DNA from: Candidatus Saganbacteria bacterium | Lineage (GTDB): Bacteria > Margulisbacteria > WOR-1 > JAKLHX01 | Length of the DNA stretch: 32,000 bases | Direction of reading: 5' to 3' | Assembly (NCBI GenBank): GCA_026387835.1 | Contig: JAPLKZ010000005.1 | Location: forward strand, 120,001-152,000 | In this document: positions 4,078 to 32,000 of the stretch, piece after piece | Layout of the letters: each line of letters starts with the position of its first letter | How positions within the stretch are numbered: the stretch's first letter is position 1 | Notes under the pieces: generated by a model | What the model saw: only the letters and a program-made list of their open reading frames with translations | Databases searched by the model: none | What the model was told of the DNA's origin: nothing | Translations under genes and position numbers: made by a program

Positions 4078-4105
4078 TTGACAATCAAAGCCTTTCTATT
4101 ATAAT
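4078..4105 (+). promoter_or_regulatory. sigma70-like promoter for module A
   Basis: TTGACA at 4078-4083, a 16 nt spacer, then TATAAT at 4100-4105. AGGAG at 4139-4143 lies 6 nt before the TTG at 4150. Confidence 0.6.
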
Positions 4106-4149: not shown

Positions 4150-5001
4150 TTGAAGAACGATCAACACAATAAAGGCCTCAGAAATTATCTGTGCCGAAAA
4201 GTCATGAAGTTCACGGCTTTTATCGCGTTCATATCCATCATTTTATTTTCAGCGCAGCCGTCATTCGCGCTTGTGGCGGCGACTGGCGGAGCGATCACAT
4301 ATGACGGAGATTATACTGTCCACACTTTCACTCAAGAGGGCACGTTCCTTGTGACCGGCGGCACTTTGAGCTGCGAAGTGCTTGTTGTGGGCGGCGGAGG
4401 AGCAGGCGCATTCAACATAGGAGCAGTCGACGCAGGAGGCGGCGGAGGAGGCGGCGGTGTTATAGTATCAAATAAAAATTTAAGCGGTTCGTATGCCGTA
4501 ACAATAGGTTCCGGCGGCAGTGGTCCTTTTGATTTTCAAATTCATAACGGGTACCCTTCTTTTCTTGGTTCTTTAGTAACGGCAGAAGGCGGAGGCGGGG
4601 GTGCTTATTCAGGAGCAAATGGTGATCACGGCGGTTCAGGTGGCGGAGCTGCTTATACCATCAGCGATCCGGGAACAGGGGAAGCCGGTCAGGGATATGG
4701 CGGAGGCCATAATATAGATGGGAGTTCCTCCGCGTCTGCAGGAGGAGGCGGCGCGGGAGCAGCCGGTTCAGACGTGACTTCCGAGGCCGGTTCAAACGGA
4801 GGTAACGGAGTATTGTTCCATGGTACGTATTATGGAGGCGGAGGAGGCGGAGGCGGGGGATCTGGGGATGGTGGAATAGGCGGCAGTGGCGGAGGAGGTA
4901 ATGGAGGTAAGGGAGGTGGAGGTCCGGATGGTGGGGGATCAGACGCGACGCCTAATACAGGCGGAGGCGGCGGTGGTGATGGGTATTATGACAATCAGTG
5001 A
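4150..5001 (+). CDS. secreted glycine-rich domain protein
   Basis: The TTG start has a good SD; an alternative ATG lies at 4204. The signal peptide is [24 protein letters not shown]. It is followed by [35 protein letters not shown] and long poly-Gly tracts ending [15 protein letters not shown]. Confidence 0.7.
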
Positions 5002-5008
5002 TCATAAA

Positions 5009-7390
5009 ATGTTGAAATTAACAAACATATTTTTTAAAATTTTATGGGCCGCATTATTTTTAGTATATGCGCTTGCTCCTTTGTGCAGCGCAAACAACAG
5101 CGGCGGCTCGGGGATAGTGGTCATAAGATATTTGACCGATCAGCCTGCGACTACTTATGTTATCACGCCTGAAGCGGGAGCTAACGGAAGCATCAGCCCG
5201 GCTACAGCGCAGACAACTGATGAAGGAGGCAATATAACATTCACGTTCACTCCAAATACCGGTTACGGTGTTTCGCGCCTTCTTGTGGACGGTGTGGCGA
5301 CAGCGGTGGCGACAAGTTACACGTTCACGAATATTACCGCGAACCACACGATAGAAGCGGACTTTAGTCCTACGTTCATCTCAACCTGGGACACGAGAAA
5401 TACATCGACGGGCTCAAGCAACGATCATCAGATCACGCTCCCTCTATACAGCGGCGGAACATATAACTTCACGGTCAATTGGGGAGACGGAAGCAGCGAA
5501 ACGATCACCGCTTATGATCAACCTGGAGTTACTCATACTTATGCATCGACGGGCGTCTACACGCTCGAGGCCAGCGGAACGATCGAGGGATGGAGTTTTT
5601 ATAATGTCGGAGACAAATTAAAGATAACAAATATCAGCCAGTGGGGACCATTAAGACTAGGGAACGGCCCTTCCAACGACGGCGGTCATTTTGACGGAAC
5701 ATCCAATTTAAAGATAACGGCGACGGATGTTCTGGACCTGACAGGGACAACCAGTATGATCAATGCTTTTGCATCCAGCGGGATCGACACAGTTCCTTCT
5801 ATGAATAGTTGGGATGTGTCAAATGTGAATACTATGAGGGGTATGTTTTCCGGCGCAACGCTGTTCAATCAGGACATCGGGAGCTGGCATGTTGATAACG
5901 TTACGGATATGAGTTCTATGTTCACCAGCGCATCATCATTCAATCAGAACATAGTAAGCTGGGATGTCTCAAAGGTCACGGATATGAGCAATATGTTCTG
6001 CGGCGCAGCCTCATTCAACCAGAATATAGGGAGCTGGAATGTATCAAGCGTTGAGAGTATGTTGCAAATGTTCGCTTCTGCCACCTCATTCAACGGGAAC
6101 ATAGGCGACTGGGGAACAAAAACATCCAAAGTTGCTAATATGAGTTCTATGTTCCAAAACGAGCAGTTGTTCAACCAGAACATAGGAAGCTGGGATGTTT
6201 CGAGCGTTACTGATATGAACCATATGTTCTTTGGCGCGATACAATTCAACCAGAACATAGGTAACTGGGATGTGTCAAAAGTCACTAATATGAACGGCAT
6301 GTTCTATTATGCAACATCATTCAACGGGAATATAGGCAACTGGGGGTCTAAAGTATCAAAAGTTACGGATATGCAGCATATGTTCGATTCCGATACCTCA
6401 TTCAATCAGAACATCGGGAGCTGGGACGTCTCAATCGTTACAAATATGAGCGGTATGTTTAATGAAGTAACATTATCAACGGCTAATTACAATAATTTGT
6501 TGACGGGATGGGCCGGCCTGACACTGCATAACGGCGTAACTTTCGATGGAGGAAATTCCAAATATAATGGAGGAACCCCCGAAGCCGCACATACAGTTTT
6601 GACCGGAACTTATGGCTGGACAATAACCGACGGTGGAATAATAACATGGACGATCACACCTGAAGCCGGAGCAAACGGTACGATAAGTCCGAGCACAGCG
6701 ACAACAACGAATGAGGGCTCGTCTACGACGTTCACGTTCACTCCGAACGCCCATTACCATGTATCGCAGGTGCTAGTAGACGGGGTTGCGACAACAGCGG
6801 CGACCAGTTACACGTTCACGAACGTGAGCGCTAACCATACGATAGAAGCTGATTTTGCACAAACTACATGGATGATAACTCCGGAAGCCGGAGCTAACGG
6901 GACGATAAGTCCAAGCACAGCGACAACAACTAATGACGGATCGTCTACGACGTTCACGTTCACGCCGAGCGCACATTACCATGTATCACAGGTGCTAGTA
7001 GACGGGGTTGCGACAACAGCGGCGACCAGTTACACGTTCACGAACGTTACCGCGAACCACACGATAGAAGCGGGTTTCAGCCAAACCACATGGATGATAA
7101 CGCCGGAAGCTGGAGCTAACGGGAGCATCAGTCCCGCTACGGTACAAACGACGAACGAGGGTTCAACAACAACGTTCACGTTCACTCCGAACGCCCATTA
7201 CCATGTATCGCAGGTACTGGTGGACGGACAGGAGCTAACGGGAGCATCAGCCCTGCTACTGTGCAGACAACGAATGAGGGTTCAACAACAACGTTCACGT
7301 TCACGCCGAGCGCACATTACCATGTATCACAGGTACTGGTGGACGGAGTGGCGACGACGGCGGCGACCAGTTACACGTTCACGAATGTGA
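5009..7390 (+). CDS. module A giant surface protein, N-terminal part (BspA-like DUF285 LRR plus InlB-B-like repeats); the reading frame is lost after about 7228
   Basis: The real start is probably the ATG at 5009 ([30 protein letters not shown] signal peptide), not 4886. The [12 protein letters not shown] motif and about 10 [20 protein letters not shown] units (DUF285) span 5366-6637. Tandem TW(T/M)[12 protein letters not shown]...[11 protein letters not shown]...HTIEADF units begin at 6647. The last 54 codons are out-of-frame Arg-rich sequence. Confidence 0.75.
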
Positions 7391-7653
7391 GCGCGAACCA
7401 TACTATAGAAGCGGATTTCAGCCAAACAACATGGATGATCACGCCGGAAGCAGGAGCCAACGGGAGCATCAGCCCTGCCACGGTACAGACTACGAATGAG
7501 GGTTCAACAACAACGTTCATGTTCACCCCGAACGCCAATTATCATATATCGCAGGTGCTTATTGACGGTGTAGCAACAACGGCAGCCACCAGTTACACGT
7601 TCACGAATGTGAGCGCTAACTATACGATAGAGGCGAATTTTGAGATAAATGCC
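6647..7653 (+). repeat. tandem 222-nt (74-aa) InlB-B-like repeat array with one truncated unit
   Basis: The unit-initial TGG (Trp) codon falls at 6647, 6869 and 7091, then at 7432. The last interval of 341 nt equals 222 + 119. A divergent unit starts at 7654. Confidence 0.85.
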
Positions 7654-8802
7654 TATCTGATAACCAGTGAAGCCGGTTCACATGGAACGGTCTCTCCGAG
7701 CGGAGAAACAAGCGTGAATTACGGAAACGACCAGCAATATCTAATAACACCGGAGGCCGGCTACAGCATATCGGATGTATTGGTAGATTCTGTCTCGCAG
7801 GGAAAGATCAGCAGTTATACGTTTACAAATGTCACTGCAAATCATTCAATTGAAGCGAGCTTTACCTCTTCGGCTATCACAGTGAACACGCCTGAAGCTG
7901 ATGCGTTCAGCGGAGTGACGACAACGGTGATCAAAGCCAACTGGAAAGCTAACGGGAATCCCGCGACAACGGAATATTATTGTGAGAATATTACAAAAGG
8001 AACAAACTCAGGCTGGATAACGGCATTTACATGGACATCGTCATCGCTTGAAGCAAGTACAATATACAACTTCCGCGTCAAGGCGAGGATCACTGCAACT
8101 GCTGAGAGCGGATGGGCGGCTCTCGGGACACAGGAGACAACAGCACAGGCTACGTCTGACGCGTCTATCGCAGGAGTCAGTCTAAAGGACGGAGATACCA
8201 TCTCAAGCACGCTGACGATAACAGTATCAATGACAGGAGAAAGCACAATAAGTTCTTCGTCACTGAGACCACAGGCAACGCTGGGAGGAGTGAAAAGTGT
8301 GTATGTTGACGGAGTCGCAGTAGCCTATGACATTATTTCTACAACATCCACGGCAGTGACACTGAAACTGCGCGACGCTCTTTCTGTCGGAACTCATACG
8401 GTCAGGGTAATAACTTATGATACCGCGGGGACTGAATATGTTTTAGAAAGGACCGGCTTATCCGTATCTTCTGGTGCTATCACAACAACGGGTCCTACAT
8501 TAGTATATCCAAACCCGTATGATCCTTTAGCCGGGAATCTCAAGATAACGTATTATCTTTCTGTTGATACAGGAACAACCATATATGTATTTGACACATC
8601 GGGAAGATTAGTATGGAAGAGCAGCTATGACAGCGGTACTAACGGAGGCAAGGCGGGATATAACGAAGTTCTCTGGAATGCAATCGATATGTTTGGCAGC
8701 CCGCTTGCAAGCGACACGTATTTCATCAACATAATAGAGCAGGGGACAGGGAGAGCGATAACGAAGGTGAAGCTTGTGGTATGGAAAGGCGGAGTGAGAT
8801 AG
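7261..8802 (+). CDS. module A giant surface protein, C-terminal part (InlB-B-like repeats, FN3-like, Ig-like, FlgD-Ig/T9SS-type CTD)
   Basis: Repeat homology in this frame already begins at 7228 ([12 protein letters not shown]...). The C-terminal roughly 390 aa is colinear with giant B. Confidence 0.8.
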
Positions 8803-9862
8803 GGATAAGAATGAGGGAGAGGAATGAGGAAGACAAAAAATAATATTATTTGCACAGTGTTATTAATGTTCTGTTTAACAGGGATATCGATAGCAGCTGA
8901 CGTGCTTGATATAGGGGCAGGTGCAAGGTCAATAGGACTTGGCAGGACGAATACCTCGGTGAAGGGAGATGCCTACGGGATATTCGGCAACCCGGCAAGC
9001 TTAAGGGGAGTGACAACGGGCGAGATAGTGAGCATGTACGGGACGATGAACACGGACGTCAAATACACGCTTCTCGGTTACGTGCTGCCTACAAAATACG
9101 GCAAGTTCTTCGCGGGTTACGCTAACAACCAGACACCCGATATTACATCCACGACGCTTGATGCCACAACAGGAAGGCCCGTGGCCGTGACAAACTTTGA
9201 TTTCAGGAACGACATGCTTCTTTTGGGATACGAGAACAGCCTGAGCAAGGCAATATCATACGGATTGAGGGTGAAATACTACAATAAAGGGAGCGCGGCC
9301 ATTGCGAACATGTCGGGTAGCGGAGTAAATGCGGACGCGGGTGTTCAGATAGACACAAATGACAAGCTGACAGTCGGTATGATCGCAAAGAATATAATAC
9401 CCGGACAGTCGATAAAGCTTCTTAACGGGCAAACTGAGGAGCTTCCGGGAGAGTTTGACATAGGACTTGGGTTTTTCCCTCATAAGAGACTGGATATCTA
9501 TGCGGATCTGAATCTTACAAGGAACATCCCTGCGGAAGCAAAAGTTGGTATCGAGTGGAGGATGGTGGATTTTCTGGCATTGCGCCTTGGCGCAGAGCAG
9601 AAGTCGATGGGTGCAAGTTCAAGTTATATAAACGGTTCAGCCGGCGTGGGATTAAACCTGGGGATATTCGGTATAGATTACGCGTATTACTATGACAGTC
9701 TTGTGACGACCAACTCAAGGCATTTCATTTCGATATCAATAAAAACACCGGCAGTGAAAGCGGCTGAGCCTGTGTTCCCGGAAAAGACAGCAACTAAAGC
9801 GATATCTAAAGAAGAAGTTAAGATCATAACTCCTAAAGCGCCGGCAATTCCGGTTGAAGAAG
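7642..9862 (+). repeat. segmental duplication, copy A (partner 13036..15256)
   Basis: The two copies align without indels at a constant 5394-nt offset from FEIN(A/S)YLITSEAG through the barrel gene linker ...PKAPAIPVEE. Confidence 0.9.
8491..8799 (+). other. FlgD-Ig / Por_Secre_tail-like C-terminal domain of giant A
   Basis: The sequence [93 protein letters not shown] matches the YPNP(F/Y).P....I.Y.L......I.(I/V)(Y/F)D..G.LV......G.....W.......G..(V/L)..(G/D).Y pattern of these sorting domains. Confidence 0.7.
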
Positions 9863-10038
9863 TGAAAGCAAAAGAGCCTGAAGCGATTGAATATATAGTA
9901 GTGGAAGATGACTGGTTGAGTAAGATAGCGTTAAGGTACTTAGGTGATATGAAGAGATATCCTGAGCTTGCCAAGATGAACGACATCAAGAATCCCGATC
10001 TGATATTTCCCGGGCAGAAGATAATTATAAAGAAATAA
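8824..10038 (+). CDS. PorV/PorQ-like outer-membrane beta-barrel fused to one C-terminal LysM domain
   Basis: The signal peptide is MRKTKNNIICTVLLMFCLTGISIAA/DV. The N-terminal motif is GARSIGLGRT..V.GDAYGIFGNPASL. Amphipathic strands end at NSRHFISISIK, followed by a P/K/E linker and a LysM domain YIVVEDDWLSKIALRYLG...NPDLIFPGQKIIIKK. The purine-rich GGGAGAGG lies just upstream, 21 nt after the giant A stop. Confidence 0.65.
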   Translation: MRKTKNNIICTVLLMFCLTGISIAADVLDIGAGARSIGLGRTNTSVKGDAYGIFGNPASLRGVTTGEIVSMYGTMNTDVKYTLLGYVLPTKYGKFFAGYANNQTPDITSTTLDATTGRPVAVTNFDFRNDMLLLGYENSLSKAISYGLRVKYYNKGSAAIANMSGSGVNADAGVQIDTNDKLTVGMIAKNIIPGQSIKLLNGQTEELPGEFDIGLGFFPHKRLDIYADLNLTRNIPAEAKVGIEWRMVDFLALRLGAEQKSMGASSSYINGSAGVGLNLGIFGIDYAYYYDSLVTTNSRHFISISIKTPAVKAAEPVFPEKTATKAISKEEVKIITPKAPAIPVEEVKAKEPEAIEYIVVEDDWLSKIALRYLGDMKRYPELAKMNDIKNPDLIFPGQKIIIKK

Positions 10039-10066
10039 CCCTTCGCTGACCTCTTCCAATTTCTTC

Positions 10067-10095
10067 TTGCTTATTGAGCTCGCGTTATATATTAT
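10067..10095 (+). promoter_or_regulatory. possible promoter for module B
   Basis: TTGCTT at 10067-10072, a 17 nt spacer, then TATTAT at 10090-10095. There is no strong SD before the ATG at 10129. Confidence 0.35.
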
Positions 10096-10128
10096 ATAAA
10101 CATCTAATCATATGACAAGAAAACAGAA

Positions 10129-13100
10129 ATGAATAATATCTTGAAAAAGCCCGGTTTAATATTATTTTATTGTTTAGCGGTCATATTTCTCTGTCTCTCA
10201 CCCGCATACGCCAGTTATCCGGATCATGTAACAAAAACAATGTCCGGATTCAGTCTCCCTCTTGGTATAGCCATTACTCCGGGTGGAGATTATGCGTATG
10301 TTGCAAATAGTGGTGGCAACAATGTTTTGGTTATTCAAACCTCCAGCAATACCACAACAGCAGCGATCTCCGTAGGGACGAATCCCAAGGGTGTTGCCAT
10401 TACTCCTAATGGAAATTACGCATATGTTACAGATTATTCCGGTGCTTCCGGCAATAGAGTTACGGTTATCGATACTTCCACCGGTACCGTTGCAGCGACA
10501 ATTTCCGGACTGAATGGACCCTTTGGCGTAGCCATAACTCCGGATGGAAATTACGCTTATGTCGCAAATTATGTTGGCAACACGGTTTCGGTTATCCAAA
10601 CCTCAACCGAAGCTGTTACCGCGACAATCAATGTAGGGACTCAACCCCAAGCTGTTGCCATTACTCCGAATGGAAATTTTGTGTATGTTGTAAATTATAA
10701 TGGCAACAGTGTTTCGGTAATCAATACTTCCACCAATACTGTTTCAGCGACGGTCAATGTAGGGAGTCAACCCCAAGGTGTCGCAATAACTCCGGATGGA
10801 AATTACGCGTATGTTTCAAATTCTTCCAGCACTCTTAGCAACTCGGTTTCGGTAATCAATACTTCCACCAACACAGTTACAGCGACGATCCCTGTAGGGA
10901 GCAACCCCATCGGCGTAGCCATTACTCCGGATGGAAATTACGCATATGTTGCAAATTATCTTAGCAACTCGGTTAAGGTTATCGATACTTCCACCAACAC
11001 CGTTGCGGCGACGATCACTGTAGGGACTCAACCCAACGGTGTCGCCATAACTCCGGATGGAAATACTGCGTATGTTACAAATACTAACGGCAACACGGTC
11101 TCGGTCCTCGGAAAAACAACATGGACGATCACGCCGGAAGCGGGAGCTAACGGAAGCATCAGCCCAGCTACTGTACAGACAACGAATGACGGCTCGTCTA
11201 CGACATTCACATTCACACCGAACGCCCATTACCATGTATCGCAGGTGCTAGTTGACGGGACAAATGTAGGGACACCAGCAGCATATACATTCAGCAATGT
11301 GAGTGCGAACCACACGATTGAGGCTGATTTTGTTATCAATACCTGGACGGTCACGCCTAATGCGATAGGTTACGGCACGGTCAGTCCGGGCACAGCAGTA
11401 ATAACGGACGAAGGCTCGACAACAACATTTACGTTCAATCCCAATCCGCATAGTCACGTAACTAATGTACGAGTAGACGGGACCAGCGTGGGTACTCCGT
11501 CATCGTACTCGTTCACAAACGTGAGTGCTAACCACACGATAGAAGCGGAATTCGAGCGGATCACCTGGATGATCACACCGGAAGCCGGAGCTAACGGAAG
11601 TATCAGTCCTGCTACTGTGCAGACGACGAATGAGGGAAGCGATACGACATTCACGTTCACGCCGGATGCTAATTACCATGTATCGCAGGTGCTGGTTGAT
11701 GGTGCAAATGTAGGGACGCCGACAGCGTATACTTTCAGCAATGTCAGCGCGAACCATACTATTGAAGCGGACTTTATAGCATTGTCTCCCGCTGCACCGA
11801 GTAATTTTAATCCCGTACCGGCTTCAACAACTCAAATGAATTATACATGGACAGATAATTCATCAAACGAATCGGGGTTTGTGATACTTGACGGATCAAA
11901 CAATGTAAAAGTGCTTGTGGCCGCGAATGCCACATCAACAAGTGAAACAGGTCTATTGGCTAATACGCAGTATACAAGGAAAGTAACCGCATATAACGGC
12001 GGCGGAGCGGCGACGTCAGATGCGGTTTCCAAATACACATCAATAGAAGCGGCTGTAAGGGGAACATATGAAGCGGGGACAACTACAAGCATAACTATTC
12101 ATTCATCAAATGCCCCGTCCAATTTGACATCGGAATCGTCCGGAATATACTTTGAAAATGTCACACAGGGAACAAATTCAGGTTGGATACAAAATAATAC
12201 TTGGACAAGTTCCGGCTTACCGTCTAATACTACATACAGTTTCAAAATAACTGCAAGGAACGGTGACGGGACAATAACATCGACAACGGATGCCGGTTGC
12301 CAGACAACTAACAATCTTCTCACCAATCCGGGAGGGGAAAGTGCGGACACAACGGGATGGACCGTGATCGACAACGGAGGGAGCGGATGGTTAGTGGGCG
12401 GAGGCTTTGTCCACTCCGGGAACTACTCATTTCAATCTTCATACAGCTGGTGCAGTATGAACCAGACAATAGATCTTTTATCCAAGGGGTATTCGGCCGC
12501 CCAGCTTGATGCGCAACCCGTTATCACCTTCAAAGACTGGGTTATGTGCCGTGACTACTTTGATACTTATTACTACATGAAATTCGACTTACTGGCTGCT
12601 GACGGGGTGACCGTGATCTCATCAGAGTCCATCGGGAGCCAGGCTAGTCCTGTTACTCTTCCCCAGAATACAGCTTGGACCGAGGTCTCTCGTACTTTTA
12701 CCGGTTACGGCACGGGGGTCAGATACATCAAATTTAAACATGCAGGATATGATGGCGGGAGGTGGGCGGGTCAATACGGCACATACTTTGATGACGCATC
12801 CGTCACTGTTGCTGGCAGCACATATTATCTGATCACAAGTGAAGCCGGCTCACACGGGTCAATAACCCCGAGCGGAACGGCAAGTGTTTATTATTGCGAT
12901 AGCCAGCAGTATGTGATTACCCCGTCAACCGGATATCATGTTTCAGGACTATTGATTGACGGCGGTACAGTGACAGCCACAACGGAATACACTTTCACCA
13001 GTGTTGCGGCAGATCATACAATAATCGCGAGTTTTGAGATCAATTCATATTTGATAACTTCCGAAGCCGGCTCACACGGAACGATCACACCGAGCGGGGA

Positions 13101-14196
13101 AACGAGCGTGAACTATGGAAGTGATCAGCAATATCTGATAACACCTGAAGCAGGGTACAGCATATCGGATGTGTTGGTCGATGCTGTCTCGCAGGGAAAG
13201 ATCAGCAGTTATACGTTTACAAATGTCACGGCAAACCATTCAATAGAAGCGAGCTTCTCTTCGTCGGCAATTTCAGTGCACACTCCCGAGGCCGCAGCTT
13301 TCAGTAATGTAACTACAACAGTGATAAAAGCTAATTGGAAAGCAAACGGCAATCCCGTGTCAGCTGAATATTATTGCGAGAATGTAACCACTTCAACTAA
13401 TTCCGGATGGATATCAGGCTTGACATGGACATCATCGTCGCTTGAAGCAAGCACAGTGTACAGCTTCAGGGTCAAAGCCAGGATAACTGCAACATCCGAG
13501 AGCGGCTGGGTATTACTGGGGACGCAGGAGACAACTGCGCAGGCCACAGCTGATGCTTCTATAGCGGGAGTGAGCCTGAAGGACGGAGATTCGATCTCCA
13601 GCACTCTGACGATCACGGTATCACTGACAAGTGAGACCACAATAAGTTCTCTGTCAATAAAACCTCAGGCGACTCTCGGAGGAGTGAAGGAAGTGGATGT
13701 TGACGGGGCCTCTGTCGCATATGACGTGATCTCAACCACATCAACTTCAGCCACGATAAGATTAAGAAATGCGCTCTCAGTCGGAACGCATACCATCAAA
13801 ATAATAACTTATGACACGGCGGGCACAGAATATGTGCTTGAGAGAACAAACCTGAAAGTTTCATCCGGTACCATCACAACGGTAGGTCCCACACTGGTAT
13901 ATCCCAACCCTTATGATCCTTTAGCGGGGAATCTTAAGATAACCTATTATCTCTCTGTTGATACAGGGACCACAATATATGTCTTTGACACAACAGGAAG
14001 ACTGGGCTGGAAGAGCGATTACCCGAGCGGTACCAACGGAGGCAAGGCGGGATACAACGAAGTGCTATGGAACGCTGTCGATATGTTCGGCAGCCCGCTT
14101 GCAAGCGACACGTATTTCATCAACATAATAGAGCAGGGGACCGGTAGAGCGATAACGAAGGTGAAGCTTGTGGTATGGAAAGGCGGAGTGAGATAG
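10129..14196 (+). CDS. module B giant surface protein (1355 aa): 7-blade YVTN beta-propeller, InlB-B-like repeats, FN3, FBA-like lectin domain, Ig-like, FlgD-Ig/T9SS-type CTD
   Basis: The signal peptide ends ...LSPAYA/SY. Seven P.GVAITPDGNYAYVAN...V.VI.TSTNTV.ATI.VG units span about 10258-11127. Three [15 protein letters not shown] units span 11119-11775. FN3-like units span 11776-12309 and the FBA-like domain spans 12310-12810. [11 protein letters not shown] units span 12823-13257 and the CTD spans 13885-14193. Confidence 0.9.
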   Translation: MNNILKKPGLILFYCLAVIFLCLSPAYASYPDHVTKTMSGFSLPLGIAITPGGDYAYVANSGGNNVLVIQTSSNTTTAAISVGTNPKGVAITPNGNYAYVTDYSGASGNRVTVIDTSTGTVAATISGLNGPFGVAITPDGNYAYVANYVGNTVSVIQTSTEAVTATINVGTQPQAVAITPNGNFVYVVNYNGNSVSVINTSTNTVSATVNVGSQPQGVAITPDGNYAYVSNSSSTLSNSVSVINTSTNTVTATIPVGSNPIGVAITPDGNYAYVANYLSNSVKVIDTSTNTVAATITVGTQPNGVAITPDGNTAYVTNTNGNTVSVLGKTTWTITPEAGANGSISPATVQTTNDGSSTTFTFTPNAHYHVSQVLVDGTNVGTPAAYTFSNVSANHTIEADFVINTWTVTPNAIGYGTVSPGTAVITDEGSTTTFTFNPNPHSHVTNVRVDGTSVGTPSSYSFTNVSANHTIEAEFERITWMITPEAGANGSISPATVQTTNEGSDTTFTFTPDANYHVSQVLVDGANVGTPTAYTFSNVSANHTIEADFIALSPAAPSNFNPVPASTTQMNYTWTDNSSNESGFVILDGSNNVKVLVAANATSTSETGLLANTQYTRKVTAYNGGGAATSDAVSKYTSIEAAVRGTYEAGTTTSITIHSSNAPSNLTSESSGIYFENVTQGTNSGWIQNNTWTSSGLPSNTTYSFKITARNGDGTITSTTDAGCQTTNNLLTNPGGESADTTGWTVIDNGGSGWLVGGGFVHSGNYSFQSSYSWCSMNQTIDLLSKGYSAAQLDAQPVITFKDWVMCRDYFDTYYYMKFDLLAADGVTVISSESIGSQASPVTLPQNTAWTEVSRTFTGYGTGVRYIKFKHAGYDGGRWAGQYGTYFDDASVTVAGSTYYLITSEAGSHGSITPSGTASVYYCDSQQYVITPSTGYHVSGLLIDGGTVTATTEYTFTSVAADHTIIASFEINSYLITSEAGSHGTITPSGETSVNYGSDQQYLITPEAGYSISDVLVDAVSQGKISSYTFTNVTANHSIEASFSSSAISVHTPEAAAFSNVTTTVIKANWKANGNPVSAEYYCENVTTSTNSGWISGLTWTSSSLEASTVYSFRVKARITATSESGWVLLGTQETTAQATADASIAGVSLKDGDSISSTLTITVSLTSETTISSLSIKPQATLGGVKEVDVDGASVAYDVISTTSTSATIRLRNALSVGTHTIKIITYDTAGTEYVLERTNLKVSSGTITTVGPTLVYPNPYDPLAGNLKITYYLSVDTGTTIYVFDTTGRLGWKSDYPSGTNGGKAGYNEVLWNAVDMFGSPLASDTYFINIIEQGTGRAITKVKLVVWKGGVR
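12310..12810 (+). other. FBA (F-box-associated, FBXO2/Fbs1 sugar-binding)-like domain within giant B
   Basis: The sequence is NNLLTNPGGESADTTGWTVIDNGGSGW...SSYSWCSMNQTIDLLSKGYSAAQLDAQPVITFKDWVMCRD...W.EVSRTFTGYGTGVRYIKFKHAGYDGGRWAGQYGTYFDDASVTV. It shares the ordered motifs NLL.NP.GE...GW..GG.GW, S..WC...Q.IDL...GY...LD.QP.I..KDW..R.D, W.E.S.TF..YG.GVR...F.H.G.D..W.G..G and SV.V with human FBXO2 as I recall it. Confidence 0.6.
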
Positions 14197-15256
14197 GGAT
14201 AAGAATGAGGGAGAGGAATGAGGAAGACAAAAAATAATATTATTTGCACAGTGTTATTGATATTCTGTTTAACAGGGATATCGATAGCAGCTGACGTGCT
14301 TGATATAGGGTCAGGCGCAAGGTCAATAGGACTTGGCAGGACGAACACGTCGGTGAAGGGAGATGCCTACGGGATATTCGGCAACCCGGCAAGCCTGAGG
14401 GGAGTGACGACGGGAGAGATAGTGAGCATGTACGGGACTATGAACACGGACGTCAAATACACGCTTCTCGGTTACGTATTGCCTACAAAGTACGGGAAGT
14501 TCTTCGCGGGATACGCCAATAACCAGACACCCGATATCACGTCCACGACGCTTGACGCCACAACGGGAAGGCCCGTGGCCGTGACCAACTTTGATTTCAG
14601 GAACGACATGCTTCTTTTGGGATACGAGAACAGCTTAAGCAAGACAATATCATACGGATTGAGGCTGAAATACTACAACAAAGGCAGTGCGGCCATTTCG
14701 AACATGTCGGGTAGCGGAGTAAATGCGGATGCGGGTGTCCAGATAGACGCAAATGACAAGCTGACAGTCGGTATGATCGCAAAGAACATCATACCCGGAC
14801 AGTCGATAAAGCTTCTTAACGGCCAAACGGAGGAGCTTCCGGGAGAGTTTGACATAGGACTCGGTTTTTTCCCGCATAAGAGACTGGACATCTATGCGGA
14901 CCTGAATCTTACAAGGAACATCCCTGCGGAGGCAAAGCTTGGCATTGAATGGAGGATGTTGGACCAACTGGCATTGCGACTTGGTGCCGAGCAGAAGTCA
15001 ACGGGTGCGAGTTCAAGTTATATCAACGGTTCTGCAGGCGTGGGTTTGACCCTGGGGATATTCGGAATAGATTACGCATATTACTATGACAGTCTTGTCC
15101 AGACGAACTCGAGGCATTTCGTATCGATATCGATAAAAACACCGGCAGTGAAAGCGGCTGAGCCTGTGTTCCCGGAAAAGACAGCAACTAAAGCGATATC
15201 TAAAGAAGAAGTTAAGATCATAACTCCTAAAGCGCCGGCAATTCCGGTTGAAGAAG
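13036..15256 (+). repeat. segmental duplication, copy B (partner 7642..9862)
   Basis: Same alignment as copy A. By eye, about 13 aa differences occur in about 345 aligned residues of the barrel proteins. Confidence 0.9.
13885..14193 (+). other. FlgD-Ig / Por_Secre_tail-like C-terminal domain of giant B
   Basis: Colinear with 8491..8799 and shows the same YPNPYDP...IYVFDT.GRL.WK...YFINIIEQ pattern. Confidence 0.7.
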
Positions 15257-15606
15257 AAGCAACAGAGGCCGTAACATCCGTTGAAGAGACAAAAGAGCCG
15301 GTAATGACGTATGCGGTAAAACCGGGAGACACGCTTGGCAAGATATCATCACTTTTCCTGGCGGACGGCTCAAAGTATACGGAGATAGCGAAAGATAACG
15401 GGATTGAAGACCCGAACCTGATATATGCGGGACAAAGGATCAAGATAACTAGAGTCGTATATGTCGTCAAGGAAGGGGATACGTTAAGCGGGATCGCTTT
15501 AAAGTTCATGAACAATGCAGATCTTTATACCAAGATCGCCAAAGATAACAGCATCGAGGATCCCCGGCTGATATTCAGCGGGCAGAAGATAGTGATCAGA
15601 AAATAA
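14218..15606 (+). CDS. PorV/PorQ-like outer-membrane beta-barrel fused to two C-terminal LysM domains
   Basis: The barrel and linker are nearly identical to 8824..10038. They are followed by YAVKPGDTLGKISSLF...NLIYAGQRIKI and YVVKEGDTLSGIALKF...RLIFSGQKIVIRK. The same 21-nt spacer follows the giant B stop. Confidence 0.65.
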   Translation: MRKTKNNIICTVLLIFCLTGISIAADVLDIGSGARSIGLGRTNTSVKGDAYGIFGNPASLRGVTTGEIVSMYGTMNTDVKYTLLGYVLPTKYGKFFAGYANNQTPDITSTTLDATTGRPVAVTNFDFRNDMLLLGYENSLSKTISYGLRLKYYNKGSAAISNMSGSGVNADAGVQIDANDKLTVGMIAKNIIPGQSIKLLNGQTEELPGEFDIGLGFFPHKRLDIYADLNLTRNIPAEAKLGIEWRMLDQLALRLGAEQKSTGASSSYINGSAGVGLTLGIFGIDYAYYYDSLVQTNSRHFVSISIKTPAVKAAEPVFPEKTATKAISKEEVKIITPKAPAIPVEEEATEAVTSVEETKEPVMTYAVKPGDTLGKISSLFLADGSKYTEIAKDNGIEDPNLIYAGQRIKITRVVYVVKEGDTLSGIALKFMNNADLYTKIAKDNSIEDPRLIFSGQKIVIRK

Positions 15607-27782: not shown

Positions 27783-29846
27783 TTATTTCCCTGCAGCTTT
27801 CAGTATGTCCGGATCGTTCTGCAGCGACACATCCGCAAACCTTAATGCCAGCCCACTTTGTTTAACGGCAGCCAAGACGACCTCTTTATCTTTTTTTAAG
27901 GACCCGTCAGCATATTCTAATGCCCACCCGTTTTGTTTGACCGCAGCCAAGACGATCTCTTTATCTTTTTTCAGGGACCCGTCAGCAAATTTTAATGCCC
28001 ACCCGTTTTGTTTGACCGCAGCCAAGACGACCTCTTTATCTTTCTTTAAAGATCCGTCAGCATATTCCAGTGTGTCCCAATTATTATTAACCGCAGCCAA
28101 AACGATCTCCTTATCTTTTTTCATAAACTCGTCAGCATATTTCAATGCCTCCCCATCTTGTTTAACCGCAGCCGAAACGACCTCTTTATCTTTACATAAA
28201 GCCTTGTCAGCAAACTCTAGTGAATTTCCCTTTTGTTTAACCGCAGCCAAAACGATGTCTTTATCTTTTTTTAAAGATCCGTCAGCATAATATAGTGCCC
28301 AACCATTTTGTCTGACCGCGGCCAAAACAAAATCTTTATTTTTTTTCAATGATCCGTCCGCAAATTTTATTGCCTGCCAGCTTTGTTTGACCGCAGCTAA
28401 AAACGACCTCTTTTGTTCAGCCGCAGCCGAAACAATATCCTTGTCTTTTTTCAATGACTCATCAGCAAATAATAATGCTTCCATATCTTGTCTAACGGCA
28501 GCCAAGACGACCCCTTTATCTTGTTTTAAAGATTCGGCCGCAAATTCTAATGCCAGCCCATTTTGCTTAACGGCAGCTAAGACAACCTCTCTATCAATTT
28601 TTAAAGACTCGTCGGCTTTTTGTAAGATACACCCACTTTGTTTAACGGCAGCCAAGACGACCCTTTTATCTTTTTTAAAAGACTCATCAACAAAAATTAA
28701 TGCCGAACCCTCTTGTTTAACGGCAGCCAAAACAAACTCCCTATTTTGTTTTAATGACCAATCAGCGCACTTTAATGCCCACCCATTTTGTTTAACGGCG
28801 AGCAGAACAAACACCTTATCTTTTTTTAAGGACTCGTCAGCATAATCTAATGCCCACCCGTGTTGTTTGACCGCGGCCAAAACGACCTCTTTATCTTTCC
28901 TTAAATACAAGTCAGCAAACTCTAATGCCAGCCCGGCTTGTTTAACTGCAGCCAAAACAATATCCTTGTCTTTTTTCAAAGACTCGTCAGCATATATTAA
29001 TGCCAGGCCATCTTGTTTAACCGCAGCCAAAACGACCTCTTTGTCTTTCCTCAATGACTTGCTGCAGCATTCTAAAATATGAATATTTTGTTTGCTTGCA
29101 GCCAAGACGACCTCTTTATCTGTTTTTAAAGAATCGTCAGCGAACCTTAATACCCACCCATTTTGTTTAACCGCAGCCAAAACGACTTCTTTGTCTTTAC
29201 ACAAAGCATTATCAGCAAACTCTAATGCATCCCCATTTTCTTTAACAGCAGCCAAAACAAACTTTTTATCTTTCTTTAATGATTCGTCAGCATACTTTAA
29301 TGCCTTTCCATCTTGTTTGACCGCAGCCAAAACGACCTCTTTATCTTTTGTCAAAGACTTGTCCGCAATCATTAACGCCAGCCAGGTTTGCTTAACCGCG
29401 GCCAAAACAATCTCTTTATCTTTATTTAAAAATCCGTCTGTTATTAGAAAAGATGTTGAACCATTCTTAATTGCAGCTAATGCGAGCTCTCTTTTTCTTG
29501 TAGAAACAAAACCTTCTACTTCTATCTGCAGGCTGATGTTGCTCTGTTGTTCAGGGGTTAATGCAGTGTTTAGTTGAGGTCTCAGCGCGTTTATATTCCC
29601 ATCCAGATCGCCATCTGATTTATCTAATGTCCGAAGTTTTAAATACAGTTTCTGGATGACATCAAAAGAAGAAGTCTTGCCCTCGTTGAATTGTACCGAC
29701 GTATCGATCTGTTTATTTGCGGCCTCATCCAGTTCTTCGCGGGTTATGTTCCCGTCAATTATCCCGTCCCTTATCGAATCGATCTTTCTCAACCTTTCAT
29801 AAATATGCTGGATGTTATCGGCGCCGGTCAAAGTTACTTTTTCCAT
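27783..29846 (-). CDS. DUF4116-type repeat protein, paralog 1 (about 22 x 25-aa repeats) with a conserved N-terminal EF-hand/dockerin-like domain
   Basis: The start is probably the ATG at 29846 (GGAGGG SD, MEKVTLTG...) rather than the TTG at 29852. LAAVKQNGWAL.(F/Y)ADGSLKKDKE(I/V)V units span 27786-29489. No signal peptide is present. Confidence 0.85.
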   Translation of the reverse strand: MEKVTLTGADNIQHIYERLRKIDSIRDGIIDGNITREELDEAANKQIDTSVQFNEGKTSSFDVIQKLYLKLRTLDKSDGDLDGNINALRPQLNTALTPEQQSNISLQIEVEGFVSTRKRELALAAIKNGSTSFLITDGFLNKDKEIVLAAVKQTWLALMIADKSLTKDKEVVLAAVKQDGKALKYADESLKKDKKFVLAAVKENGDALEFADNALCKDKEVVLAAVKQNGWVLRFADDSLKTDKEVVLAASKQNIHILECCSKSLRKDKEVVLAAVKQDGLALIYADESLKKDKDIVLAAVKQAGLALEFADLYLRKDKEVVLAAVKQHGWALDYADESLKKDKVFVLLAVKQNGWALKCADWSLKQNREFVLAAVKQEGSALIFVDESFKKDKRVVLAAVKQSGCILQKADESLKIDREVVLAAVKQNGLALEFAAESLKQDKGVVLAAVRQDMEALLFADESLKKDKDIVSAAAEQKRSFLAAVKQSWQAIKFADGSLKKNKDFVLAAVRQNGWALYYADGSLKKDKDIVLAAVKQKGNSLEFADKALCKDKEVVSAAVKQDGEALKYADEFMKKDKEIVLAAVNNNWDTLEYADGSLKKDKEVVLAAVKQNGWALKFADGSLKKDKEIVLAAVKQNGWALEYADGSLKKDKEVVLAAVKQSGLALRFADVSLQNDPDILKAAGK

Positions 29847-29917
29847 TTTCAACCCTCCTTCTCTGTGGCATATTTAAAACCCAAATTTCTTTATTAAATA
29901 GCAGCCAGATCAAGTTA

Positions 29918-30703
29918 TTATTTCCCCGCAGCTTTCAGTATGTCAGGATCTTTCTGCAGCGATGCATCCGCGTAATTTAATGCCCACTCATGCTGTTTGA
30001 CCGCGGCCAAAACAACCTCTTTATCTTTCTTTAAAGAGTCATCAGCAAAATATAATGCCCACCCGTTTTGTTTAACAGCGGCCAAAACAATATTTTTATC
30101 TTTCTTTAAAGATTCGTCGGCATATACTAATGCAAGCCCGTTTTCTTTGACCGCGGCCAAAACGATCTCCCTGTCTTTTTTGAAGAGTTCGCCGGCATAT
30201 TGCAATCCATTCCCGTATTGTTTAACCGCGGCTAAAACGCTCGCTCTATCTTTCTTTGAAGCCGTATCCGCAGATGGTTTTGCCGCCCGCTCATCTTTTT
30301 TGACCGCAGCCGGAACGGCCTCTTTGTCTTTCTTTGGAGCTTCTTCCTTTTTTCCGGTAAGATCAGAAGCTTCTAATTCTAATTGCAGGCTGAACTTGCG
30401 CTGTTGTTCAGGGGTCAAAGGAAAGTTGAGGCGGAACCTTAGATCTTTGATATTGCCGTCCAGTTTGCCATCCTCTTTGTCCATAGTCTGAAGTTTCAAA
30501 TAGAGTTTTTGAATAACCTCAAAAGACGTAGTTTTGCTTTCATTGAATTGCACGGACGTATCGACTTGTTTCTTTGCAGCCAGGTCCAGTTCCTCCCGGG
30601 TTATATTGCCGTCTATTTTCCCGTCCTTTATCGAATCTATCTTCCTCAGCCTCGCATAAACGCTCTCGATATTTACGGTCCCGGTCAATGTTACTTTTTC
30701 CAT
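29918..30703 (-). CDS. DUF4116-type repeat protein, paralog 2 (4 intact repeats plus a degenerate K/A/P-rich linker)
   Basis: It has the same N-domain (MEKVTLTGTVNIESVYARLRKIDSIKDGKIDGNITREELD...) and the same C-terminus DPDILKAAGK* as paralog 1. An AAGGAAGGA SD lies upstream. Confidence 0.85.
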   Translation of the reverse strand: MEKVTLTGTVNIESVYARLRKIDSIKDGKIDGNITREELDLAAKKQVDTSVQFNESKTTSFEVIQKLYLKLQTMDKEDGKLDGNIKDLRFRLNFPLTPEQQRKFSLQLELEASDLTGKKEEAPKKDKEAVPAAVKKDERAAKPSADTASKKDRASVLAAVKQYGNGLQYAGELFKKDREIVLAAVKENGLALVYADESLKKDKNIVLAAVKQNGWALYFADDSLKKDKEVVLAAVKQHEWALNYADASLQKDPDILKAAGK

Positions 30704-30754
30704 GTTATCCTTCCTTTCTTTTTAAGATAAATATAAATCCTTCATATACTTAGT

Positions 30755-31903
30755 TCAATGCCTGCCTATTTGTTCGGCTGCAGCAGAAATAACATCTTTA
30801 TCATTTTTCAAAGACTCGTCCGCAAATTCTAATGCCCGCCCATTTTGCTTAACCACGGCCAAGATAAACGCTTTATCTTTCTTTAAAGATTCATGGGCAA
30901 AATTTAACGCCCACACATCCTGTTTGATCGCCGCCAGAACAATTTCCTTGTCTTCTTTTAAAGACCCATCTGCATATGCCAATGACCGCCCGTTATGTTT
31001 GACCGCTGCCAGAACAACATCCCTGTCTTTTTTTAAAGAGTTGTCAGCAAAGTCTAATGCCCACACATCTTGTCCGATCACAGCCAGAACAAACTCCTTA
31101 TCTTTCTTTAAAGACTTGTCCGCAAACTCTAATGCCCGCCAGTCTAGTTTAGCCGCAGCCAGAACAAACGCTTTATCTTTTTTCAAAGACCCGTCCGCAA
31201 ACTCTAATGCCCGCCCATTTTGCTTAACCACAACCAAGACAAACGCTTTATCTTTTTTCAAAGACCCGTCCGCAAACTCTAATGTCCGCCCATTTTGCTT
31301 AACCGCAGCCAAGACAAACGCTTTATCTTTTTTTAAAGATTCGTCTGCAAATTCCAGTGTCTGGACATCTTGATTAGCCGCAGCCAAAACAACCTTTTTA
31401 TCTTTCTTTAAAGACTCGTCTGCATACATAAATGTCCGCCAATTTTGCTTGACCGCCGCCAAAACAATCTCTTTATCTTTATTTAAAGATCTATCAGTTA
31501 TCAGGAAAGATGTTGAGCCATTCTTAATTGCCGCTAATGCGAGCTCTCTTTGTTTTGTGGAAACAAAAGCTCCCACTTCTAACTGTAGGCTGACTTTACT
31601 TTGTTGTTCAGGAGTTAATGCGGTAACCATGTTAGGTCTCAGCACGTTTATATTGCCATCCAAGTCACCATCCGCTTTATCTAATGCCTGAAGTTTCAAA
31701 TATAGTTTTTGAATAACATCAAAAGACGAAGTTTTGCCCTCGTTGAATTGCACTGACGTATCGATCTGTTTATCTGTGGCCTCGTCCAGCTCCTCGCGTT
31801 CTATATTTCCGTCAATTATTCCGTCCCTTATCGAATCGATCTTTCTCAACCTTTCATAAATATGCTGGATATTATCGGCGCCGGTCAATGTCGCTTTTTC
31901 CAT
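30755..31903 (-). CDS. DUF4116-type repeat protein, paralog 3 (about 10 repeats)
   Basis: The start is probably the ATG at 31903 (AAGGAAGG SD, MEKATLTG...) rather than 31939. The N-domain is near-identical at nt level to paralog 1. The protein ends ...DKDVISAAAEQIGRH*. Confidence 0.85.
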   Translation of the reverse strand: MEKATLTGADNIQHIYERLRKIDSIRDGIIDGNIEREELDEATDKQIDTSVQFNEGKTSSFDVIQKLYLKLQALDKADGDLDGNINVLRPNMVTALTPEQQSKVSLQLEVGAFVSTKQRELALAAIKNGSTSFLITDRSLNKDKEIVLAAVKQNWRTFMYADESLKKDKKVVLAAANQDVQTLEFADESLKKDKAFVLAAVKQNGRTLEFADGSLKKDKAFVLVVVKQNGRALEFADGSLKKDKAFVLAAAKLDWRALEFADKSLKKDKEFVLAVIGQDVWALDFADNSLKKDRDVVLAAVKHNGRSLAYADGSLKEDKEIVLAAIKQDVWALNFAHESLKKDKAFILAVVKQNGRALEFADESLKNDKDVISAAAEQIGRH

Positions 31904-32000
31904 ATTAGCCTTCCTTTCTTTATAGAGAACTTTGATCATTTAGCCTCTTTTGGCCTCAACTATGTATCGACAGAATATTTGAAAAATTTCACACTTTATT

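Follow-up and report, generated by a model that had tools for sequence, protein, structure and literature searches.

Does a gene for an outer-membrane barrel that directly follows the gene of a giant modular protein serve to export that protein, to hold it at the cell surface, or neither? This question is raised by a stretch of 32,000 nt from a Candidatus Saganbacteria bacterium (contig JAPLKZ010000005.1, positions 120,001 to 152,000; the whole stretch is called the window in the following), in which such a pair of genes occurs twice in tandem. A description made earlier from the letters alone (the sequence-only reading) had taken the two pairs as large adhesins, each ending in a C-terminal domain (CTD) of the kind found in type IX secretion systems (T9SS) and each followed by its own PorV-like barrel fused to LysM. 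It had suggested a self-contained export or anchoring pair resembling two-partner secretion. Order, strand and coordinates of the four genes were as described (Table 1), and the spacers between giant and barrel gene are both 21 nt long and have the same sequence (TAG GGATAAGAATGAGGGAGAGGA ATG, with the ribosome-binding-like run GGGAGAGG inside). We concluded that CTD-bearing cargo and barrel together form a genuine unit that is conserved and under selection. On balance, the analysis favours a conserved two-gene surface-display cassette of Saganbacteria/Margulisbacteria, present here as a tandem duplicate, which would consist of a cargo and a wall-tethered PorV-like anchor.

We surveyed the gene neighbourhoods of barrel homologues and found a CTD-bearing gene directly upstream of the barrel gene in 14 of the 16 distinct contexts examined. 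The paired contexts are the two window pairs, L001 (= L003), L002, the contig carrying P0014, L004, L005, L006, L007, L008, L009/L010, L013, L014 and L015. The barrels of L007 and L008 are of the SLH type and those of L009/L010 are distant relatives; the P0014 contig was counted as paired on the basis of a 2194-aa upstream protein, the CTD of which was not read. Cargo and barrel genes overlapped by up to 19 nt or lay up to 45 nt apart; the exception was L015, with a spacer of 484 nt. The stop codon of the cargo gene often overlapped the start codon of the barrel gene. This close spacing suggests that cargo and barrel are translationally coupled. Each locus had exactly one match in a scan for the YPNP-type CTD motif, and the gene with this match was in every case the one that precedes the barrel; the upstream partner had the same kind of CTD whatever its N-terminal modules. 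Since the order recurs in so many contexts, the arrangement of cargo and then barrel is not due to chance. For ten pairs the identities of CTD and barrel co-varied (Mantel r 0.965, p 2e-4, a correlation that is confounded by phylogeny), and because of this shared divergence CTD and barrel appear to be inherited as a unit.

Comparison of the two window pairs with each other showed 71-82% DNA identity for the cargo C-termini and about 90% for the barrels; at the protein level the barrels were 96% and the CTDs 95% identical. The dN/dS ratio was 0.085 for the stalk (the modules that precede the CTD), 0.072 for the CTD and 0.063 for the barrel, and all three are under strong purifying selection. 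The synonymous divergence (dS) was highest in the stalk (1.31), lower in the CTD (0.60) and lowest in the barrel (0.35), and a DNA tract with 96-99% identity (8695-8845 versus 14089-14239) comprises the end of the CTD, the spacer and the start of the barrel. The near-identical tract together with the fall in dS from stalk to barrel suggests gene conversion between the two pairs. The two CTDs are probably interchangeable, and so are the two barrels. The barrels had been described as dedicated to their cargo. They do occur as one-to-one, probably co-expressed units, but specific recognition within each pair does not fit barrels that are 96% and CTDs that are 95% identical, with a tract of up to 99% identity between them. 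"Dedicated" most likely means that cargo and barrel are made together in equal amounts, one to one.

The assignment of the CTD to T9SS was based on profile scans and on a structural model. The last 110 aa of both giants passed the cut-off of 23 bits for TIGR04183, the T9SS type A sorting domain, with 29.0 bits for giant 1 and a marginal 23.4 bits for giant 2. PF18962 stayed below its threshold (21.9 and 15.9 bits versus 27), PF13860 did not match the window CTDs, and CHU_C, the type B CTD, reached only 15.5 bits on the window CTD. An AlphaFold2 (AF2) model of the CTD of giant 2 (predicted local distance difference test score, pLDDT, 86.9) showed a 7-strand Ig-like beta-sandwich, as in solved T9SS CTDs. 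When this model was compared with PDB by Foldseek, PorZ (5m11, E 2.9e-5, 25% identity) and PorU (6za2, template modelling score 0.75) came out best, both with their C-terminal domains, and the Ig-like domains of the streptococcal C5a-peptidase (ScpA) and FlgD were close behind. A sequence profile of the cargo C-termini matched FlgD and the C-termini of PorU and PorZ among the PDB sequences. Of the T9SS surface proteins two retain their CTD, namely PorU, which is held by PorV, and PorZ, which is held by PorQ (PMC7463736, PMC10202324). These results support that the window CTD is a T9SS type-A-like sorting or anchoring domain, in line with the T9SS-type CTD of the sequence-only reading.

Both barrels matched NF033709, the PorV/PorQ family model, over its full length (model positions 3-325 of 326), with 72.8 bits (E 3.6e-20) for barrel 1 and 73.3 bits (E 2.6e-20) for barrel 2, while the curated cut-off is 90 bits. 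Among the equivalog models the next best was PorQ (NF033711, 48 and 44 bits versus a cut-off of 220), and PorV (NF033710) gave 13 and 16 bits versus 250. Since the matches are full-length at E values of about 1e-20 but remain below the cut-off, the window barrels appear as remote relatives of the PorV/PorQ family and not as curated members. No match to the window barrels was obtained for PF03349 (FadL/OmpP1/TodX, Toluene_X), nor for PF11751 (PorP/SprF) at E up to 0.1. In the AF2 model of barrel 1 (pLDDT 75.9) a helical plug at the N-terminus (aa 26-62) precedes the 14 strands, and these are followed by a P/K/E linker that is disordered (aa 320-349) and by a LysM fold. Its top matches in PDB were the PorV chains 8gl6_F (E 5.1e-12) and 6h3i_F from SprA-PorV translocon complexes; TodX and FadL followed, and OmpM1 was among the weak fold matches. 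The PorV/PorQ-like nature of the barrel was thus confirmed by the full-length profile match and by the best fold, but not by a score above the family cut-off.

From the N-terminus, barrel 1 consists of a signal peptide (aa 1-25), the plug and the 14-strand barrel (aa 26-312), the P/K/E linker (aa 313-353) and one LysM domain (aa 357-403). In barrel 2 the barrel part is the same, and behind it lie two LysM domains, at aa 365-411 and about 415-461. PF01476 (LysM) scored 36.6 bits for the single copy in barrel 1 and 83.1 bits (E 1.3e-23) for the two copies in barrel 2, well in line with the LysM fusion read from the sequence (cut-off 20.9). In the model an odd-numbered strand is followed by a longer connection than an even-numbered one. 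With 14, i.e., an even number of strands and short even-to-odd turns, the last strand should terminate on the periplasmic side, which would place the C-terminal linker and LysM there as well. The periplasmic LysM expected for an even-stranded barrel in the sequence-only reading agrees with this topology, a location that follows from the model.

The close family of the barrel comprises 28 matches, mostly of 380-424 aa and with LysM; two members carry SLH in place of LysM, one of them annotated as Margulisiibacteriota. A profile search against 1.84 billion cluster representatives returned 540 relatives with E values of 1e-30 or less and 6577 with 1e-10 or less. Throughout the best 150 the barrel is N-terminal; these proteins are 204-950 aa long, mostly at least 300 aa. 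Among 101 close cluster representatives the C-terminal fusions were SLH in 37, a Glucodextran_B-type sandwich in 16, LysM in 6 and SPOR in 4. By these counts, the LysM fusion is a minority form of a broader design that joins a PorV-like barrel to a C-terminal wall-binding domain. PF11751 matched with E up to 0.001 in only 2 of the 101. The named relatives are Margulisbacteria or Margulisiibacteriota, and the next tier is formed by Zixibacteria fusions of PorV/PorQ with TPR. At NCBI the barrels are named only "LysM/SLH domain-containing protein", and the cargos are "hypothetical" where they are named at all. We also noted proteins of about 610 aa (P0312-P0322), one annotated as a Zixibacteria PorV/PorQ family protein, in which a PorV/UPF0164-type barrel is joined to many TPR repeats. 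They are another class of PorV-like barrel fusion.

In the mechanism that we favour, each large modular protein would be exported by Sec. It ends in the T9SS type-A-like beta-sandwich CTD nearest to those of PorZ and PorU, and the next gene, probably translationally coupled to that of the cargo, provides the 14-stranded PorV/PorQ-like outer-membrane barrel. We infer that the CTD binds directly to the barrel, which would hold it uncleaved and non-covalently at the cell surface, as is the case for PorQ-PorZ, PorV-PorU and SprF/PorP with type B cargo. On the other side of the membrane, the periplasmic linker and LysM (SLH or SPOR in relatives) would pin the complex to peptidoglycan and so would do in cis what PorE does in trans for PorP. 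The cargo could cross the outer membrane via a T9SS translocon encoded elsewhere in the genome or by another route. Of the two roles proposed in the sequence-only reading, an anchoring pair with wall tethering is the best-supported one, considering the folds of CTD and barrel, the synteny and the precedents from T9SS.

Several observations weigh against this mechanism. Reports of T9SS are confined to the FCB superphylum, and the scans of the window and of the neighbours revealed no core gene of a machine for the export step. The score of the barrels below the NF033709 cut-off has been mentioned; in addition, the sequence profile of the barrel barely detects true PorV (E 0.25), and the relationship between the two is therefore remote. 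PorV binds its partners through long loops, and the modelled extracellular loops of the window barrel are short (20 aa or less). Two close relatives of the barrel-SLH type are found on their own in a housekeeping context: the first lies between aroK and aroB, the second follows tilS. Finally, some cargo homologues have a hydrophobic and basic tail after the CTD that is not accounted for by a model of cargo and anchor. The stand-alone relatives (L011/L012, 6001-7533, and the contig carrying P0151) may be a general shuttle or a plain tether between outer membrane and wall.

The claim that the window lacks T9SS core genes was correct: our hidden Markov model scans found none (SprA/Sov, PorK/L/M/N, PorU) in the 32 kb, nor in the neighbours of relatives that were scanned. 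Reviews confine T9SS to Bacteroidota or the FCB superphylum (PMC7463736). Among the papers that could be searched, we found none that links Saganbacteria or Margulisbacteria to T9SS, PorV to SLH, or Termititenax to secretion in a relevant way, and a search for PorV, LysM and T9SS together returned Bacteroidota papers only. The T9SS translocon and motor may be absent from Margulisbacteria/Saganbacteria altogether. The cassette would then be a free-standing system for display and tethering, in which the barrel receives and holds the cargo, perhaps helps to export it, and staples the outer membrane to the wall via LysM, SLH or SPOR. Being found in a lineage that is sister to Cyanobacteria, it would be either ancestral to the T9SS shuttle/anchor module or an independent branch of it. 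We consider this possible, but only tentatively so.

A self-contained exporter would go further: the barrel, alone or with the beta-barrel assembly machinery (BAM), would move its giant across the outer membrane without any T9SS translocon, like two-partner secretion or a trans autotransporter. The missing core genes, the restriction of T9SS to Bacteroidota/FCB in the reviews as opposed to the Margulisbacteria-type lineage studied here, and the conserved one-to-one coupled gene pair in 14 of 16 contexts are all compatible with such a function, and the helix-like C-terminal tail of some cargos could thread through the barrel. However, a plugged 14-strand barrel of the FadL type is too narrow for folded beta-propellers, POTRA/Omp85 barrels and two-partner secretion (TPS) domains are lacking, and the PorV-family barrels known so far act as shuttles or anchors of their cargo, not as its translocators. 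The absence of T9SS genes from 32 kb is also uninformative, since these genes are scattered around genomes. We regard this explanation as unlikely.

Slightly less probable still is that the barrel acts mainly as a tether between outer membrane and wall or as a FadL-like channel, in the role of OmpM or OmpA, and that its position reflects co-regulation of envelope genes and not CTD binding. The wall-binding fusions that dominate the family (SLH, LysM and SPOR in 37, 6 and 4 of 101) would be expected of a tether, as would the members that stand alone near aroK/aroB and tilS; TodX and FadL are the next-best folds after PorV, and weak matches to Toluene_X were found in 9 of the 101 relatives. Against this, the barrel gene directly follows a CTD gene in 14 of 16 contexts, and the stop codon of the one often overlaps the start codon of the other; the partner always has the same kind of CTD irrespective of its N-terminal modules. 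The 99%-identical tract covers exactly the end of the CTD, the spacer and the start of the barrel, and PF03349 does not match the window barrels. A match of the barrel to the FadL/OmpP1 uptake family without accompanying CTD cargo, which would have spoken for a channel, was not what we found, and a plain FadL uptake channel unrelated to its neighbour was rejected on the basis of synteny.

It is very improbable that the giant is kept within the envelope by docking of its CTD on the barrel's plug or periplasmic face, with the tail-bearing homologues anchored in the inner membrane by their C-terminal helix: the hydrophobic helix and basic tail of several homologues have the layout of an inner-membrane anchor and the modelled extracellular loops are short, but the window giants do not have this tail and are built of modules typical for proteins of the cell surface (PARCEL/DUF285, InlB-B repeats, fn3, lectin-like FBA, beta-propeller), and PorZ and PorU, which have the nearest CTD structures, are cell-surface proteins (PMC7463736). 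A homologue of two-partner secretion was rejected, as neither the barrels nor the giants matched ShlB, POTRA or Haemagg_act and the barrel has 14 strands. The analogy drawn in the sequence-only reading has no support from homology; the likeness is that a large adhesin gene is paired with a gene for an outer-membrane barrel, while TpsB is a 16-strand Omp85 barrel with POTRA, TpsA has an N-terminal TPS domain, and the barrel gene usually comes first.

The anchoring mechanism that we favour has its closest counterpart in PorQ-PorZ and PorV-PorU, the attachment complex of Porphyromonas gingivalis, in which a 14-strand barrel of the PorV/PorQ family holds a surface protein via its uncleaved type A CTD (PMC7463736, PMC10202324). 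The best structures for the window CTD are PorZ and PorU, and the best equivalog for the barrel is PorQ. The differences are that the window barrel gene lies immediately 3' of its cargo gene and is duplicated together with it, and that the barrel is fused to LysM (SLH or SPOR in relatives) and scores below the family cut-off. The host belongs to Saganbacteria and not to Bacteroidota, and neither a PorU sortase nor any other T9SS core gene was seen in the window.

The sequence-only reading had contrasted the pairs with a canonical T9SS without cargo-adjacent barrels. This contrast was overstated, since PorP/SprF-like barrels adjoin the genes of type B CTD cargo and anchor this cargo, large adhesins such as SprB included, and PorE adds peptidoglycan binding in trans (PMC9143113, PMC12618676). 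In the PorE-PorP-PG1035 complex the link to peptidoglycan is supplied by the OmpA_C-like domain of PorE (PMC9143113, PMC12618676, PMC7463736). In contrast to these systems, the window CTD is type-A-like (TIGR04183) and not type B, the window barrel does not match PF11751, and wall binding is fused to the barrel via LysM instead of residing in OmpA_C on a separate lipoprotein. BamG, a FadL-type barrel in the BAM of Bacteroidota, binds a surface lipoprotein through its loops (PMC12578637).

Two further systems share single features with the window pairs. One likeness is to the OmpM/Slp-type SLH-porins of diderm Terrabacteria: in both, a covalent link connects a barrel in the outer membrane with a domain that binds the wall, and SLH is the commonest fusion among the barrel relatives (37 of 101). 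The order of domains is reversed, as in OmpM SLH is N-terminal and the barrel C-terminal, and OmpM is a 16-strand trimeric porin, whereas the window barrel has the 14-strand FadL/PorV fold. We know of no CTD-bearing partner cargo for OmpM. In inverse autotransporters (intimin, invasin, type Ve) a periplasmic LysM tethers the adhesin-bearing barrel to peptidoglycan, and the passenger is made of Ig-like repeats; the idea of a LysM tether is what they have in common with the window pairs. Unlike cargo and barrel in the window, which are separate proteins, barrel and passenger of these autotransporters are one polypeptide, and they have an N-terminal LysM and a barrel of 12 strands. IAT_beta, the inverse autotransporter barrel, did not match any of the window proteins.

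Cargo-adjacent barrels for type B CTDs, the holding of retained CTDs by PorQ and PorV, and the wall binding by PorE are thus already known. The new combination is that of a type-A-like CTD with an adjacent cognate PorV/PorQ-like barrel, a wall-binding domain fused to this barrel, and a host outside the FCB superphylum. The module of CTD and PorV-like barrel, which was described only for FCB, is extended to Saganbacteria/Margulisbacteria as a conserved, probably coupled gene pair. Should this lineage lack the T9SS core machine, the question of how the T9SS shuttle/anchor step arose could be tested directly. The LysM, SLH or SPOR domains on the barrel would be a natural version of the proposed PorE-PorP-cargo wall anchor, and the fusions point to a previously unlisted class of tethers from outer membrane to wall in diderm relatives of Cyanobacteria.

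Table 1. Coordinates of the features of the gene block in the window (position 1 is the first nucleotide of the window).
Feature	Position	Strand	Remarks
Promoter-like site	4078..4105	+	perfect TTGACA-16-TATAAT (sigma-70 consensus) upstream of the gene block; consensus match only
Secreted glycine-rich protein (Gly_rich_2)	4150..5001	+	first gene of the block; PF21722 E 2.5e-12; N-terminus signal-peptide-like
Giant 1	5009..8802	+	in two frames, not one open reading frame
Giant 1, 5' part	5009..7228	+	frame 2; signal peptide, InlB-B-type (Flg_new_2) repeats, DUF285/PARCEL repeats; PF03382 E 1.9e-80, PF18998, TIGR02167; repeat families D1, D2, D5
Giant 1, frame break	7229..7231	+	"...VLVDG" joins "GANGSIS..."; about 103 nt of the 222-nt repeat unit missing
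Giant 1, 3' part	7231..8802	+	frame 1; Flg_new_2 repeats, conserved stalk (fn3-like domain and two Ig-like modules), CTD
CTD of giant 1	8485..8802	+	TIGR04183 29.0 bits; YPNPYDP motif at 8506; dN/dS 0.072
Pair-1 spacer	8803..8823	+	21 nt; Shine-Dalgarno-like GGGAGAGG
Barrel 1	8824..10038	+	404 aa
Giant 2	10129..14196	+	1355 aa, intact open reading frame
CTD of giant 2	13879..14196	+	TIGR04183 23.4 bits; AF2 model
Pair-2 spacer	14197..14217	+	21 nt; same sequence as pair-1 spacer
Barrel 2	14218..15606	+	462 aa

Two giants of more than 1200 aa had been described. This was correct for giant 2, which is intact with 1355 aa, whereas giant 1 is frameshifted in the assembly. Three-frame translation of giant 1 gave a sensible protein in frame 2 up to about 7228 and in frame 1 from about 7231, and at NCBI the 3' part is annotated as a separate hypothetical protein of 455 aa (P0029). 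The break falls into a tandem array of Flg_new_2 repeats (6644-7641, 222-nt unit), in which repeat family D1 shows one irregular step of 119 nt. A programmed frameshift was rejected, as the break is a deletion within a repeat unit without slippery-site logic. A collapse of the repeat in short-read assembly appears more likely than an old pseudogene, because stalk, CTD and barrel of pair 1 are under strong purifying selection when compared to pair 2.

Giant 2 consists of a signal peptide, a YVTN beta-propeller, Flg_new_2 repeats, fn3, an FBA lectin-like domain, the conserved stalk and the CTD, with matches to TIGR02276 (E 6.4e-71), PF04300 (E 1.2e-32), PF18998 and PF00041. The PF04300 match is to the F-box-associated (FBA) domain, here in a bacterial surface protein (window positions 12298-12810, aa 724-894). 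This domain binds glycans and is known mainly from subunits of eukaryotic ubiquitin ligases. Across the loci the N-terminal modules of the cargos vary freely (PARCEL/DUF285, YVTN propeller, FBA lectin-like, fn3, TIG), and what is conserved in the closer relatives is the stalk and CTD at the C-terminus. The query in our search for homologues of the cargo C-terminus held one InlB-B repeat; most matches were to this repeat, and only about ten covered stalk and CTD. Minimal cargos of 380-450 aa (P0033, P0035, P0037) consist of signal peptide, stalk and CTD only. Since such minimal cargos exist, stalk and CTD may be the basic unit onto which passengers are added.

In the cargo homologues P0033, P0095, P0101, L007:2-997 and L013:2-235 the CTD is followed by a linker, a hydrophobic helix and a basic end. 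This tail contains a recurring E-x-x-(M/L/V)-(R/K)-(F/M/V)-(Y/W) pattern and resembles a C-terminal sorting signal or a membrane anchor. The window giants end exactly where the extra tail of these homologues would start.

One of the distant loci showed an additional arrangement. In L009 (9356-17217), and likewise in L010, a 211-aa protein with a PorZ-like CTD (NF052228, E 2e-14) is followed after 9 nt by a barrel with a C-terminal Ig-like domain. Downstream of this barrel lie the gene for a 1107-aa TPR protein and ExbB-ExbD-ExbD-TonB, so that a motor driven by the proton-motive force adjoins the pair of CTD protein and barrel.

All genes from 4150 to 15606 are on the plus strand. In total, the region had no more promoter-like sites than expected from shuffled sequence. 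The glycine-rich protein at the beginning of the block stops 7 nt before giant 1 (window positions 4150-5130), and the mature N-terminus of giant 1 resembles the usual end of a glycine-rich domain. This N-terminus may be a recombination scar or a second frame problem. The remaining genes of the window are housekeeping or unrelated genes: nuoH, a ferredoxin-like gene, citrate synthase and an AI-2E transporter upstream of the block, and tig, clpP, lon, ileS, ahcY, lspA, lgt, a glycosyltransferase and three DUF4116 repeat proteins downstream. The latter three are encoded in tandem on the minus strand (27783-31939) and have 13, 4 and 9 repeats, and this part of the window shows a lower GC content (about 0.40) and a reversed GC skew.

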